DNA from: Octopus sinensis | Lineage: Eukaryota | Length of the DNA stretch: 53,274 nt | Direction of reading: 5' to 3' | Assembly: GCF_006345805.1 (NCBI RefSeq) | Contig: NW_021833900.1 | Location: 1 to 53,274, forward strand | Shown here: in pieces, positions 13,294-47,967 of the stretch | Numbering within the stretch: position 1 is the stretch's first letter | How the letters are laid out: the number at the start of each line of letters is the position of its first letter | Position numbers and translations under genes: made by a program | The notes under the pieces: model-generated | The model's database searches: none | What the model saw: only the letters and a program-made list of their open reading frames with translations | Told to the model about the DNA's origin: nothing

Positions 13294-13585
13294 GCTGTAG
13301 TGGTTAAGAGTGCGGGCTACTAAACCCAAGATTCTGAGTTCGATTCCAGGCAGTGTCCTGAATAATAATAATATAATAATAATAATAATAATAATAATAA
13401 TAATAATAATAATAATAATAATAATAATAATAATAATAATAATAAAATCGAAAAATACCTTTGTAATGAGAACCCAGGTTCGAAATTTCCCCCAAGACAC
13501 CTGATGAAGGCTGGAGGGTGTATCAGCCGAAACTTTGTGTTAACAACAAACAAGATGAAGATAAATATCAAATGTAAATAGTGAA
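13294..13585 (+). mobile_element. tRNA-headed SINE-like element with internal (AAT)n and 3' hammerhead-like module
   Basis: GCTGTAGTGGTTAAG (A-box-like), anticodon arm GGG-CTACTAA-aCCC, B-box GTTCGATTCC at 13338-13347, (AAT)n at 13361-13443, then HHR-like motifs. Confidence 0.8.
13496..13541 (+). ncRNA. Minimal type-I hammerhead ribozyme motif (stem III mutated)
   Basis: Stem I GACAC/GTGTT, CTGATGA at 13501-13507, stem II GGCTG/CAGCC, GAAAC-TT-T (expected GAAAC-GT-H). Confidence 0.75.
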
Positions 13586-13627
13586 GAAATAGCAGTCATG
13601 ATTTTACCTTCTTAACAATTTACTTTA

Positions 13628-13717
13628 GCCCTGACGAAGGTTTTTGCTTTTCAAATTCATAATGCAATTTAATTGCATTTATGTGAATCTAAGCAACAAA
13701 CCGAAAAACGGGTAGGC
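13628..13717 (+). ncRNA. Type-I hammerhead motif with extended stem II
   Basis: GCC-CTGACGA-aGGTTT.TTGCTT...AATGCAAT-tta-ATTGCATT...AAGCAA.AAACC-GAAA-aacggg-TA-GGC. Confidence 0.7.
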
Positions 13718-14194
13718 AACATAATTTGACTATTATGATAAATACATAGATTATTCTATGGATGCATTCTCCATTATCTTTATATTGGTATATATATATA
13801 TATATATATATATATATATATATATATATATATACACATATATATATCTATATGCATAGTTATGGTGTGTTCCATTAAGAACGTGGTAGAGTACAGTATA
13901 GAGCTCGCCCACCTTCAGAATTACCTAGTAGTATCGGTAGTATTAATTTATACCTCCAAATTTAAATTTGGGCATTCGTCGTATAAAGTTGAAGAAATCG
14001 TAGTCAACAAGGAGAGTACGGTTGGACATTTGATTATTATTCGCCAAAACAATTGTAGCGAATAATTTCCCATCTGTACTTATTCTTCTTAACTCCAATC
14101 GTGAGTGCAACACGCTAATCACTAGGCGATGCGCCTTCTCTCTCTCTCTCTCTCTCTCTCTCTCTCTCACACACACACACACGCACACACACAT

Positions 14195-14790
14195 TCTTTT
14201 ACTTGTTTCAGTCACTTGACTGCTGCCATGCTGGAGCACCGCCTTTAGTCGAACAAATAGACCCCCAGGACTTATTCTTCGTAAGCCTAGTACTTATTTT
14301 ATCGGACACTTTTTGCCGAACCACTAAGTTATGGGTACGAAACACACCAACATCAGTTGTCAGCACTGGTGGGGGAGCGATCACAGATACACAAAACATA
14401 TACATATATTATATATATATATATATATATATATATATATATAGATATATATATATATATATATATAATATATATATTACATACATATATATGATTGATT
14501 GATTCTAGTTTCAGCTCATGAGCTGTGGCCATGCTGGGGCACCGCTATTATATATATATATATTTATATATATATATATATATATGTATATATATATATA
14601 TATAATATATATACACGCATATATATGACGGGCTTCTTTCAGTTTCCGTCTGACAAATCCACTTACAAGGATTTGGTCGGCCCGAGGCTATAGCAGAAAA
14701 CACTTGCCTAAGGTGCCATGCAGTGGGACTGAACCTAGAACCTTGTGGCTTGGAAGTAAGCTTCTTACTACACAGCAATACCTGCGCCTA
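14195..14790 (-). mobile_element. SINE family B (tRNA head, CORE-like block, internal microsatellite), rearranged
   Basis: Reverse complement of 20653-21048. An extra tail fragment at 14500-14546 lies inside the internal (TA)n. Confidence 0.88.
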
Positions 14791-14890
14791 TCTATCTATC
14801 TATCTATCTATCTATCTATCTATCTATCTATCTATCTATCTATCTATCTATCTATCTATCTATCTATCTATCTATCTATCTATCTATCTA
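14789..14890. repeat. (TATC)n microsatellite
   Basis: Perfect tetranucleotide run. Confidence 0.98.
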
Positions 14891-15338
14891 AAGTGAGACG
14901 AGAGCCAATACTTAAGCAGTATAGCGCGAACTATATTTATTAGACCTCATAAATGCCAAATTGTAGAATAGACAGGAAATAAAATTAGAATTTTAGTGAA
15001 TAAATGACGAATGGTATAATAATTTACAGGAAACCAGGGACAAAATAAGTACCAAGAGTCGTAAACTGCATGGAAAATAAATAGCTTAATGGAGGTAACA
15101 TGCTAATGCGTGTGGGCCAAGAGAACTGCATGCACGTGTTCCTATGTACTTCTCAAGAGACAGGCTGTCAGTATATGAACACGGAAACTGAATACGATAA
15201 GCAGTAGTAATAATGATTGTAATAAATATATATAATATAGAATAATACTACTCTACTTTCTATTCCCTTGCCAAAATATCTTGATACTTAGCACAAGTAC
15301 TAACGCATGTGTTTCTGTACTCATGTACATGCATATAT

Positions 15339-44861: not shown

Positions 44862-45110
44862 GGTGAAAGGTTGGATCCTTGCAGTACTCCAATCGGAATC
44901 TTTCAAACCCTGGATATGGTGTATCATTCCTTTTAATTGGGATTGGAGTAGGTTAGCAAATATGCTTCTCTGTAAGGCACAAGTCATAATAACCTCATCA
45001 GCTCTACCGTCCCCTCTGCTCCAATGTATAATGTATAGCAAAATGATGTCAAAGACCGGTGATAGCATTAAGTGCAGCGAACACAGTTGCAGCGGTTATG
45101 ATGAGTTTCA
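44862..45110 (-). mobile_element. Decayed RTE-like LINE reverse transcriptase fragment
   Basis: LSPVFDIIL...RADEVIM...GLKDSDWSTARIQPF resembles LSPxLF / xADD / GLxxSWxKTKIQxF. Confidence 0.5.
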
Positions 45111-45257
45111 CCTGAATTCCCTGATGTGTACAAACGAATAAAATGTTTGGTGAGCAAAAACTTTCATTTAGATATTTTACAAATGGTAAAAGAAAAAAAG
45201 AAAAAAGAAGCAAAAAACAAAAACAAACAAACAAACCCAAACCAAAGGAAAAACAAA

Positions 45258-45641
45258 GTGGTAAGTAGCTTGCTAACCAACCACATGGTTCCGGGTTCAG
45301 TCCCATTGCGTGGCATCTTGGGCAAGTGTCTTCTGCTATAGTCTCGGGCCGACCAATGCCTTGTGAGTGGATTTGGTAGACGGAAACTGAAAGAAGCCTG
45401 TCGTATATATGTATATATATTTATGTGTGTGTATATGTTTATGTGTCTGTGTTTGCTTGACAACCGATGCTGGTGTGTGTATGTCCCCGTCACTTAGCGG
45501 TTCGGCAAAAGAGACCGATAGAATAAATACTGGGCTTACAAAGAATAAGTCCCGGGGTCGATTTGCTCGACTAAAGGCGGTGCTCCAGCATGGCCGCAGT
45601 CAAATGACTGAAACAAGTAAAAGAGTAAAGAGTAAAAGAGT
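45258..45641 (+). mobile_element. SINE family B
   Basis: Highly similar to 20653-21048. Confidence 0.93.
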
Positions 45642-46391
45642 ATAGTTACGCACACATGTTCATATACATTTAAACATGAGACACACATGCAAGAATATAT
45701 TCGAAACATTCTTTTCCATCTTGTTACCTTTTTCATTTCAGTTTTCCAAGGTCACTAATTACACGTATGGAGCACCTGAACATACACACATATACAACAC
45801 ACACGCTCCACAAACACCTACACTCAAGACACACATACAACATACACTTACCACACAACACACAACACATACACGTATGCTCAAACACAAACGAAATGTA
45901 ATCGTTGCTGAAATGTCATCATATTTCATTCTCCTTTCAACCTGAATCTTATCTCCTATCTGCTAAAGAATCCGTTTTTTTTTTTAATTAATTATAATAG
46001 CTTGCCCCCCCCCCCTCCACACTCAACACTCAAATCCGATTCAGCTAGTTTACCCGTGTCGGAAAGCTTTTTTAAAACTTGAAGAAATCAAGGAAATACT
46101 ATAATAGTTGCGTTCAACAACACCGATTTAGCATCCTAGTCCTGAACGATCCTTCTTATATTCTGATGTAGGCATTCAGGAGAGAGAGAGAGAGAGGGGG
46201 GGAGAAAGAGAGGAAGAGAAAGAAAGAGAAAAAAGAAAGAGGGGTAGGGAGAAACCACTTTTATGGTGCTCTAGCAGTCAGTTTCAACCATCAATAACAG
46301 TTCGTATATGTAACCCACCTCAACCAATGAGAACCAACTAGCTCATATCTTTCGAAAATATAGATTCTTTCCTTGATATATCTAATATTGC

Positions 46392-46790
46392 AGGGCGGCG
46401 AGCTGGCAGAAACGTTAACCCGCCGGGCGAAATGCCTAGCGGTATTTCGTCTGCGTTACGTTCTGAGTTCAAATTCCGCCAAGGTCGACTTTGCCTTTCA
46501 TCCTTTCGGGGTCGATAAATTAAGTACCAGTTACGCACGGGGTCGATATAATCGACTTAATCCCTTTGTCTATCCTTGCTTGTCCTCTCTGTGTTTAGTC
46601 CCTTGTGGGTAGTAAAGAAATAGGTATTCCGTCTGCCGTTACGTTCTGAGTTCAAATTCTGCCGAGGTCGACTTTGCCTTTCATCCTTACAGGGTCGATT
46701 AAATAAGTACGCACTGTAATCGATTTAATCCCTTTGTCTGGCCTTGTTTGTCCCTCTATGTTTAGCACCCTGTGGGCAATAAAGAAATAA
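46392..46790 (+). mobile_element. Dimeric SINE family A with TSD
   Basis: TSD ATATCTAATATTGC on both sides (46378-46391 and 46793-46806). The second unit restarts at the internal GGTATT.CGTCTG site. Confidence 0.92.
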
Positions 46791-47542
46791 ATATATCTAA
46801 TATTGCCTGAACGATAAGTGTGTGTTCTCCAAGCAACAACTTCAAAGGATTCCTGATTTACATACATAGTTACACCACACACACTCACACACACACATAC
46901 ACACATATATTGATGAAAATATGATAAAAGTATTATGTAAATAAAGCATGATATAAAAGAATGAAATGAGTCAAAAAGAGAGGGAAAGAAAAACGAAATG
47001 GAGATGTAGACACACGCGCACACACACCCAAACACCAAAGAGAAAACAAAAATATATAATAGAGAAAGAGATTCAGAGCGAGATTGAGACAGTGCGAGAA
47101 GGAGATAAAGAAAAGGAGAGCAAATAATGTAAGAGGTGTGTCTCTTACTTTATCTCAGTGTATCACGAATTCAGATGCTTTATAGCTACGAGGTGAGCAA
47201 GGGAAATTAAATGGAAAACTGAGAGGGTAAGAAACCGCAAAACTAATTAAAAGCAGATAAATAGACACAGATATATAGAGAGAAATAGATTGATAGATAG
47301 TGTCTTTTACAATAGGCTCGGGCCGACGAAGCTTGTAAGTAGGTCTGGTGAACAGAAGCTGAAAGAAGCCCGTCGGGGGTGTGTGTGTGTAAATATATAT
47401 ATATATATTATATATATATATATATATATATATTTAAAAATGAGGGAGATAAATTAATATTAATTTTAATATCAATTTAAAACCAGTAGTCCAGCATACA
47501 AAAAATCTGAGAAGTCAGAGAAAATTCTAATATATGTGTATA

Positions 47543-47967
47543 TTGGCAGGGCCAGACTGCTAGGTAGTCGGCCAAATGCTAGAAATAGATCATCAACGAT
47601 CAAACTACAAAGGGAATTCTCTAGAGGAAAAATTCAGCGAACACCAGAACCAAATTTGGCGGGCAGGACAGATGAAAAATTTATATAAAAGACAGAATTA
47701 AATGCATACCTCGGTTTCGGCCTTTAACAAAAGATTTACTTACGTAATTCAAATGTCCGTGGCTTCATCAGTGCATTCGTTCAGCGTAAATGCAGTCTGA
47801 AAAACTAACCCCAGCTTTCTGTGCCAAGACAGACACGTGCTTAGTTTTACCGATTACATTAGGGATAAAATTTCAAATGTCTTGGTTCCGGCGCGCTAAG
47901 AAATTCCTGATCGTTGATGATCTATTTCTAGCATTTGGCCGACTACCTAGCAGTCTGGCCCTGCCAA
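47543..47967. repeat. Perfect 60-bp inverted repeats enclosing a hammerhead
   Basis: 47543-47602 is the exact reverse complement of 47908-47967. Confidence 0.95.
47701..47777 (-). ncRNA. Type-I hammerhead ribozyme motif
   Basis: AATGCA-CTGATGA-aGCC...GGCc-GAAA-CC-ga-GG-TA-TGCATT. 6-bp stem I, GUA triplet, A-C mismatch at the base of stem II. Confidence 0.8.

Follow-up and report, generated by a model that had tools for sequence, protein, structure and literature searches.

Hammerhead-like sites at the locus

Contig NW_021833900.1 of the Octopus sinensis assembly GCF_006345805.1 (2.72 Gb, with 30 chromosome-scale contigs) was analysed as a whole, and its 53,274 bases are referred to here as the window. 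The window has a GC content of 37%, is rich in microsatellites and short repeats, and carries a truncated reverse-transcriptase (RT) fragment of a Penelope-like element (PLE) together with twelve sites that have the layout of a type I hammerhead ribozyme. We interpret these motifs as folds of the minimal type I hammerhead carried at the 3' end of ten repeat families. Three of these families are shown below to be PLE ends, the others are likely PLE ends or non-coding derivatives of them, and most copies are decayed solo ones; from the sequence comparisons presented below, we put the probability of this reading at about 0.85.

A preliminary description of this contig proposed hammerhead architecture at about a dozen coordinates, from many unrelated families. 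A type I hammerhead-like layout is present at all 12 of those coordinates, and the families number ten: A (13501+), B (13631+), C (17365+), D (17983-), E (19236-), F (20184+), G (21369-), H (24504+, 25872- and 26343+), I (27440+), and J (47771-). The sites placed at 24499, 25817, and 26338 are therefore all copies of H, and the coordinate 21283 marks the 3' half only of hammerhead G, which is present by family alignment. The window copies are unevenly preserved. Three of the 12 are fully intact (19236-, 25872-, and 47771-, i.e., E, one H, and J), four keep the core with decayed stems (13501, 13631, 17365, and 20184), and in five the core departs: 24504 and 26343 have GATA in place of GAAA, 21369- reads CTAATGG, 27440 combines U4C with a 3-nt deletion at the cleavage site, and 17983- carries A6U.

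Each family was searched for in the assembly as a dispersed repeat, which all ten proved to be (the 40-48 matches scored per family are lower bounds), and 20-34 copies were aligned per family. The core CUGANGA..GAAA..UH is found in the majority of copies of A, C, E, F, G, H, and J, and in a minority of copies of the old family B. The 5' core together with GAAA..UH occurs in 27/31 aligned copies of A, 14/22 of C, 25/33 of E, 22/24 of F, 15/20 of G, 22/23 of H, 19/20 of J, and 4/21 of B; with position 6 left free the count for D is 31/34, and with C or U at position 4 that for I is 16/21. Helix III is palindromic, or so with one wobble or mismatch, in all ten alignments. Judged by eye, the 10.1-11.1 pair is G-C in A, B, D, H, I, and J and G.U in C, and an extra base follows A9 in five of the ten families. 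The earlier idea that the structure is conserved while stem sequences differ holds up, since the ten families mostly keep the minimal type I fold, B excepted. The described closeness to (TA)n and (CA)n is also seen: a dinucleotide run is found no more than 350 nt away from 10 of the 12 sites, compared with 42% of positions in the 13-48 kb interval, and (TA)n or (CA)n directly borders the 3' end in B, D, H, I, and J.

Table 1. Positions of the PLE fragment, hammerhead motifs and associated elements in the window.
Feature	Position	Strand	Remarks
PLE reverse-transcriptase fragment, 5'- and 3'-truncated	12100..13300	-	RVT_1 E=1e-9; partner of family A
Family A, inverted copy of the PLE's own 3' end	13297..13590	+	abuts RT 5' break; contains tRNA-like head, (AAT)n, hammerhead
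tRNA-like head	13297..13360	+	RNA polymerase III (Pol III) A-box (5' part lost here) and B-box
Hammerhead A	13496..13541	+	core intact; helix III ACGT decayed to ACTT
Element B	~13582-13787	+	3' end at (TA)n
Hammerhead B, long helix II	13628..13717	+	old family; helix III decayed
Partial inverted copy of family C	17178..17267	-	5' core present; without GAAA or helix III
Hammerhead C	17361..17442	+	family helix III ACAGCTGT; helix I weak
Family D, 5'-truncated Neptune-type PLE 3' untranslated region (UTR)	17863..19019	-	pyrimidine-rich, ends at (TA)n
Hammerhead D	17952..17987	-	A6-to-U core (CUGUNGA); helix III decayed in this copy
Hammerhead E, intact	19199..19242	-	element 19014-19270; family C.A mismatch at 10.1-11.1
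Hammerhead F, long helix II	20178..20265	+	element ~19482-20301
Hammerhead G	21282..21374	-	core decayed here; family CTGATGA, helix III ACGGCCGT
Hammerhead H, copy 1	24498..24559	+	GAAA to GATA
Hammerhead H, copy 2, intact	25817..25878	-	inverted partner of copy 3
Hammerhead H, copy 3	26337..26398	+	GAAA to GATA; element ends at (TA)n 26558
Element I, 3' end of Nematis-type PLE	27235-27580	+	
Hammerhead I	27430..27542	+	U4C core, long helix II; cleavage site deleted here
Hammerhead J, intact	47700..47778	-	element ~47433-47910

Search specificity and genome-wide load

The scored type I descriptor allowed at most one change in the core and scored the helices by pairing; it was designed after the candidates had been seen. 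At a score of at least 14 it returned 9 matches in the window, compared with 0.19 +/- 0.39 (maximum 1) in 100 local dinucleotide shuffles. Eight of the nine are sites already named in the preliminary description and the ninth lies at 10629 (-). With a score of 18.6, this match was considered as a new hammerhead and rejected, as the core occurs in 1 of 21 copies of its repeat; positions 10576-10639 belong to an unrelated high-copy repeat in which one point change creates a chance hammerhead-like layout. Because 10629 is a chance match, single matches need family support, and at a threshold of 10 the shuffles yield 2.5 matches per window. C (17365) and G (21369) score below 8 in the window, and D and F only 9-11, yet all four were accepted because their family alignments show the fold. 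Rfam 15 placed no hammerhead model among the best 150 of 190 hits in the window, and scans of A, B, E, and F gave none among the matches listed, all of which were microsatellite-driven miRNA and snoRNA; such a miss of minimal hammerhead variants is expected.

To place the window in its genome, 100 stretches of 10 kb were sampled at fixed steps on the 30 large contigs, which hold ~86% of the assembly, with unplaced contigs outside the sample. This 1 Mb contains 44 intact-core motifs at a score of at least 16, compared with 0.27 in 30 shuffles, so that neither in the window nor in the sample did shuffled sequence give a comparable yield. Bootstrapping puts the density between 28 and 63 per Mb, which corresponds to 76,000-171,000 motifs in the assembly with a central estimate of 120,000. 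With one core change allowed, 55 sample matches at a score of at least 16 fall into 28 clusters (Chao1 ~70), and 35 of the 55 have a copy at another examined locus. Genome-wide patterns of the core plus an 8-nt helix III, with helices I and II outside the pattern, matched exactly at 14,643 places for spacers of 10-40 nt and at 35,214 for spacers of 41-70 nt, compared with 350 and 487 in the reversed controls (49,857 vs. 837 in total). Together with the exact matches of A (2,377) and D (12,543), the exact total is 64,777, or 24 per Mb, and most motifs have a long helix II arm of 40-100 nt. The very large genome-wide load anticipated from this one contig is thus real in the structural sense of the word ribozyme, at ~44 intact motifs per Mb and ~65,000 exact matches.

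Compared with the genome mean, the window is somewhat rich in matches (9 vs. 3.9 expected per 53 kb; bootstrap P ~0.046), which might mark it as a special locus, either a hot spot or a cluster of ribozymes used by the host. However, one of the nine matches is false and three belong to one local family, which brings the window near the genome norm; in addition, its cores and stems are decayed, and among 14 window ORFs (open reading frames) tested there was no Pfam match above the cut-off besides RT. We therefore regard a special locus as very improbable.

Conservation of the fold

Helix III was left out of the selection in a set of 41 matches chosen on core, helix I, and helix II, and it is self-complementary in 31 of them, compared with 3/28 in 40 shuffles. 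In H and two diverged relatives, both partners have changed in 7 of the 15 base pairs and pairing is kept in 100% of cells; this count comes from five hand-picked related sequences and is indicative only. Position 7, the free position of the core, varies in H (A 12, G 6, C 4), F, and D, and its neighbours stay. Differences between near copies resemble neutral decay, many of them at CpG. Covariation and a conserved core, as would follow from the preliminary description, are seen in these double-sided changes of H and in the core kept in most copies, B excepted. Minimum free energy folding of monomers vs. dimers did not produce the active dimer fold and was not used.

One could suppose that the motifs are chance matches in AT-rich, repeat-rich DNA, passively amplified with unrelated repeats; one of the top matches, at 10629, was such a case, and the shuffle yield at a score of 10 points the same way. 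Against this stand the excess over controls, both per Mb in the sample and in the genome-wide pattern counts, the unselected helix III palindromes, and the compensatory changes. For the set as a whole the chance reading is refuted, and we give it next to no weight, although single low-scoring sites can still be chance.

Family A, its PLE partner and a tRNA-like head

The RT fragment of the window shares ~89% DNA identity with 29 other loci. Family A lies downstream in sense, behind the GIY-YIG region, in 19 of these loci, and an inverted A lies upstream of the RT, arranged as in the window, in 12; the window RT copy itself breaks off before the endonuclease (EN). A tblastn search of the window RT on family loci had found no RT beside A copies, and the reading of RT and A as neighbours by chance was reversed by the RT-anchored search. 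By its motifs, we take the RT fragment to be of Penelope/Poseidon type. At another locus (L335:2450-3570; L numbers denote examined loci) we noted a Gag-like frame with a zinc knuckle that probably comes from a long terminal repeat (LTR) retrotransposon inserted into a PLE copy.

Family A is abundant, at 20 copies per Mb in the genome sample. In the PLE 3' end, matches to the A- and B-box consensus lie ~30-40 nt past the ORF stop, with (AAT)n and then the hammerhead coming next. A set of 120 loci selected without regard to the RT gave 28 matches to this tRNA-like head, 17 of which start at -25..+3 of the head and none of which (0/28) reaches more than 25 nt into the ORF. Since the 5' ends cluster at the head and none lies deep in the ORF, RNA templates starting at the head are suggested, and solo copies of A likely start from their own tRNA-like promoter, as a passenger of the PLE resembling a short interspersed element (SINE). 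The comparison also suggests that this passenger is identical to the 3' end of its partner PLE. ARAGORN called no tRNA in the head, and Rfam gave no tRNA among the matches listed for the L207 copy. Because A is also the 3' end of an autonomous PLE in 19/29 RT loci, the likely mobilizing partner is identified. If A is indeed a Pol III SINE moved by a PLE, it is a case in which the partner can be named, whereas for elements of this kind it usually has to be guessed.

Families D and I and their core variants

Longer copies of D run through a pyrimidine-rich 3' UTR into an ORF with a Cys-linker and GIY-YIG (L357, L363, L369, L381, and L382), and the Cys pair between GIY and YIG is visible in L344 and L363. 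The GIY-YIG match (E=7.5e-4) is below the Pfam cut-off; by its Cys-linker and GIY-YIG pattern, D is classed as the 3' end of a Neptune-type PLE. The D core, CUGUNGA, has 12,543 exact matches genome-wide with U6 vs. 431 with another base, mostly C among 100 matches listed, which is what point mutation predicts. U6 persists in all the subfamilies whose flanks clearly differ, and the non-U copies are scattered tips. All four bases occur at position 7 among the first 100 matches listed. D keeps C3, U4, G5, G8, A9, G12, A13, A14, A15.1, U16.1, and a non-G at 17 in nearly all copies, and we read it as a weakened but still selected hammerhead of putative activity. An alternative register (U3, N4) loses helix I and II and was rejected.

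A family related to D (L252:1591, L284:8057, L347:2878, and others) has A6 but mostly C4, with the same helix II stem and ACGT helix III as D and a compensatory G-C in helix I. Position 4 also varies in family I, where a same-strand ORF lies 520-960 nt upstream in 5/19 other loci; this ORF had no Pfam match, and from its motifs we take it to be Nematis. Exact matches of I number 61 for CCG (C4), 46 for CTG (U4), and 20 for CCA (a G5-to-A decay product), and the U4 count exceeds simple CpG decay. These counts imply that C4 masters existed beside some U4, and likely both forms spread.

In three raw RNA runs carrying another species' label, analysed together with one contig set, the D motif at L079 has a depth of ~630-1,050, both mate directions alike. 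No end pile-up is listed at the predicted D cut, where cDNA libraries cannot show cleavage either way, and the D reads have no position-6 difference among the best 40 of 145 rows. The H hammerhead is without raw-read coverage over most of its length in the same runs. A SINE fragment at L079:2682-2843 has ~8x the read depth of the D motif in the three runs.

Alternatively, the fold may be retained for a role other than catalysis, for instance as an RT/EN recognition or packaging signal in the PLE 3' end, with cleavage dispensable, at least in D-like lineages. In line with this, D is the most abundant exact motif and has U6 in every subfamily seen, U4C masters occur in I and in the D-related family, Naiads spread without canonical hammerheads (PMC8557442), and other functions for PLE hammerheads have been left open (PMC4209133). 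On the other hand, D keeps the catalytic set in nearly all copies with positions 7 and 17 varying, a pattern to be read with the selective search for D in mind, and core variants from nature retain low activity: an A6C variant in phage does so with an Mn2+ preference (PMC3088659; PMC7151607), and a U4C variant in a viroid has reduced activity (PMC3088659). We consider a purely non-catalytic role possible, though rather unlikely.

Solo, inverted and tandem copies

Across families, the 3' ends of copies are sharply defined, the 5' ends are ragged, and inverted neighbours are frequent; most copies are solo or in inverted pairs. The hallmarks of PLEs in the excerpts of PMC8557442 are 5' truncation, partial tandems, an adjacent inverted copy, and microsatellite targets, and all of these hallmarks of EN-containing (EN+) PLEs were found here. 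The EN+ PLE order of RT and then GIY-YIG, with a Cys pair separating GIY from YIG, was also found, and A, D, and I have the sense position in the PLE 3' end that corresponds to the pseudo-LTR (pLTR). Tandem spacing was observed at 355 bp for E, 504 bp for H, ~545 bp for J, and 565 bp for F, each in 1-2 of ~20 loci. The suggestion that much of the apparently unclassified DNA would be solo PLE pLTRs or retrozyme-like elements is supported as to the kinds of element, with A, D, and I traced to three PLE ORF types and E, F, H, and J found as tandem units. The linking of each family to an autonomous PLE succeeded for A, D, and I and not for B, C, E, F, G, H, and J, for which no ORF upstream was tied to the family in the loci searched. 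Long shared flanks in some C, G, and I pairs reflect near-identical duplications. At a single locus (L181:2219-2508), a Neptune-like EN frame precedes a same-strand G copy by ~600 nt.

Most families might instead be independent canonical retrozymes that amplify via circular RNA and are not PLE ends. E, F, H, and J do occur as 355-565 bp non-coding tandem units, arrays of 2-5 units were met in the systematic sample (L275, L259, L255, and L299), and animal type I hammerheads typically have a helix III of two pairs with a palindromic tetraloop. Among the sampled loci, the strongest candidates for retrozymes are the arrays at L275:3255-5487 (~558 bp), L259:1045-2114 (~535 bp), L255:2692-3184 (~492 bp), and L299:9310-9754 (~444 bp). 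However, solo copies and inverted pairs with ragged 5' ends predominate, and A, D, and I are continuous with PLE ORFs. Moreover, retrozymes have themselves been proposed as PLE pLTR derivatives (bioRxiv 10.64898/2026.07.22.740005), so that the rivalry between the two is largely a matter of degree. Full independence from PLEs strikes us as unlikely.

Proposed mechanism and its weighing

If the motifs are PLE 3' ends and their derivatives, their distribution may be explained as follows. The PLE GIY-YIG nuclease would nick the target, often (TA)n, as can be expected from PLE biology, and the RT would copy the RNA from its 3' end in a target-primed manner, usually stopping after 100-1,000 nt. Such an early stop would produce a lone 3' end that still contains the hammerhead, in many cases next to a partial twin in inverted orientation. 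Where precursors are tandem, the palindromic helix III may allow two motifs to pair and release unit-length RNA. The fold would then be under selection only in copies still replicating, which would account for a structure kept across families and subfamilies while single copies decay, as by CpG changes. Most solo copies are probably silent or unable to pair.

Several points weigh against seeing working hammerhead folds of PLE descent in these motifs. The descriptor was adjusted by eye and one of its nine top matches proved false, most window copies are no longer intact, and the covariation count in H has the narrow basis given above. By eye, position 10.1-11.1 is mismatched, with no G-C, in E, F, and G. 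The low variation inside the D motif is partly built in by a search pattern that favours conserved motifs, A6U and U4C alter positions whose change lowers activity (PMC3088659; PMC7151607), and seven families (B, C, E, F, G, H, and J) are without a proven ORF link. In addition, in vitro cleavage by published minimal PLE hammerheads is poor (PMC4209133), and of nine Xenopus retrozymes assayed as dimers, eight did not cleave (bioRxiv 10.64898/2026.07.22.740005).

PLE hammerheads cleave weakly in vitro and are missing from some PLE clades, which makes their role a question of interest. The octopus genome supplies dozens of families and thousands of near-identical copies, along with natural core variants (U6, C4, and C.A at the helix II base), and because the success of such variants can be counted, cleavage can be set against amplification directly. 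For repeat annotation, short unclassified repeats with a hammerhead fold become assignable to PLEs. More tentatively, and with the odds somewhat against all parts holding together, we propose that a Neptune-type lineage with tens of thousands of copies and U6 in every subfamily has acquired a new functional core that may require a different ion or partner, or else keeps the fold for a non-cutting job; that a Poseidon-type 3' tRNA-like promoter has spawned a hammerhead SINE; and that the load, at ~44 per Mb and 70 or more families, is the highest yet described in an animal.

Other repeats of the window

Positions 22699-23488 hold two 353-bp tandem units between (TA)n runs, each with a near-perfect long inverted repeat and similar to a miniature inverted-repeat transposable element (MITE). 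A 170-bp inverted-repeat element at 36138-36307 is also MITE-like and gave a spurious 58-bit Rfam miRNA match. A short frame at 16058-16135 resembles what we take to be a mariner transposase N-terminus; the ORF at 16067-16426 that overlaps it had no Pfam match.

Comparison with known systems

Minimal hammerheads in PLE pLTRs have been reported at ~2,000 and 1,300 in Schistosoma, 4,000 in coelacanth, and 9,000 in Xenopus tropicalis (PMC4209133). The octopus motifs resemble them in the type I layout with a short helix I and a palindromic helix III, in the extra base after A9 of five of the ten families, in the many heterogeneous families per genome, mostly as single motifs with close opposite-strand pairs, and in the tie to Poseidon and Neptune elements. 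They differ in number, with 64,777 exact and ~120,000 estimated, although the descriptors differ, and in the 40-100 nt helix II arm of most motifs. The excerpts of PMC4209133 name U3-A8 as the sole core change, whereas A6U and U4C occur here, and the searched supplement file of that paper does not mention Octopus.

Among animal retrozymes, loads of >6,000 in 16 families (Acropora), ~5,000 (Mytilus), and ~120,000 in two families of the 28-Gb axolotl genome, or ~4/Mb, have been given (PMC7229834; bioRxiv 10.64898/2026.07.22.740005). Where E, H, J, and F occur in tandem, they resemble the animal non-LTR retrozymes in being non-coding units with one type I hammerhead each, and they likewise have many monomers and a proposed pLTR origin. 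Unlike those published loads, the octopus has ~44/Mb by estimate, or 24/Mb by exact count, in at least 28 families (Chao1 ~70), again with differing descriptors. We found no report of hammerheads in octopus in the literature searched, and the searched passages of two papers on cephalopod repeats do not mention ribozymes.

As in the natural A6C and U4C variants, D and I change positions 6 and 4. Those variants are rare single cases, whereas A6U is fixed here in >12,500 exact copies and diverged subfamilies. The term A6U is absent from the searched texts of PMC3088659 and PMC7151607, its one appearance among the results listed is in a paper on the twister ribozyme, and no report of it was found in the literature, a search that did not extend to Luense et al. 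(RNA Biol) on small PLE hammerhead variants. Schistosome SINEs join a Pol III promoter to a hammerhead (PMC6765202), and family A would likewise have a tRNA-like promoter and then a hammerhead in a short repeat. Unlike them, A is the 3' end of an autonomous PLE, has a minimal PLE-type motif, and occurs as solo or inverted insertions; no paper on a tRNA head in a PLE end was found in the literature searched. Since heterogeneous, mostly solo, PLE-linked minimal hammerheads are already described in PMC4209133, the octopus motifs are of a known kind. What differs from the literature searched is their scale, the long helix II, the lineage with fixed U6, and the tRNA-headed family.

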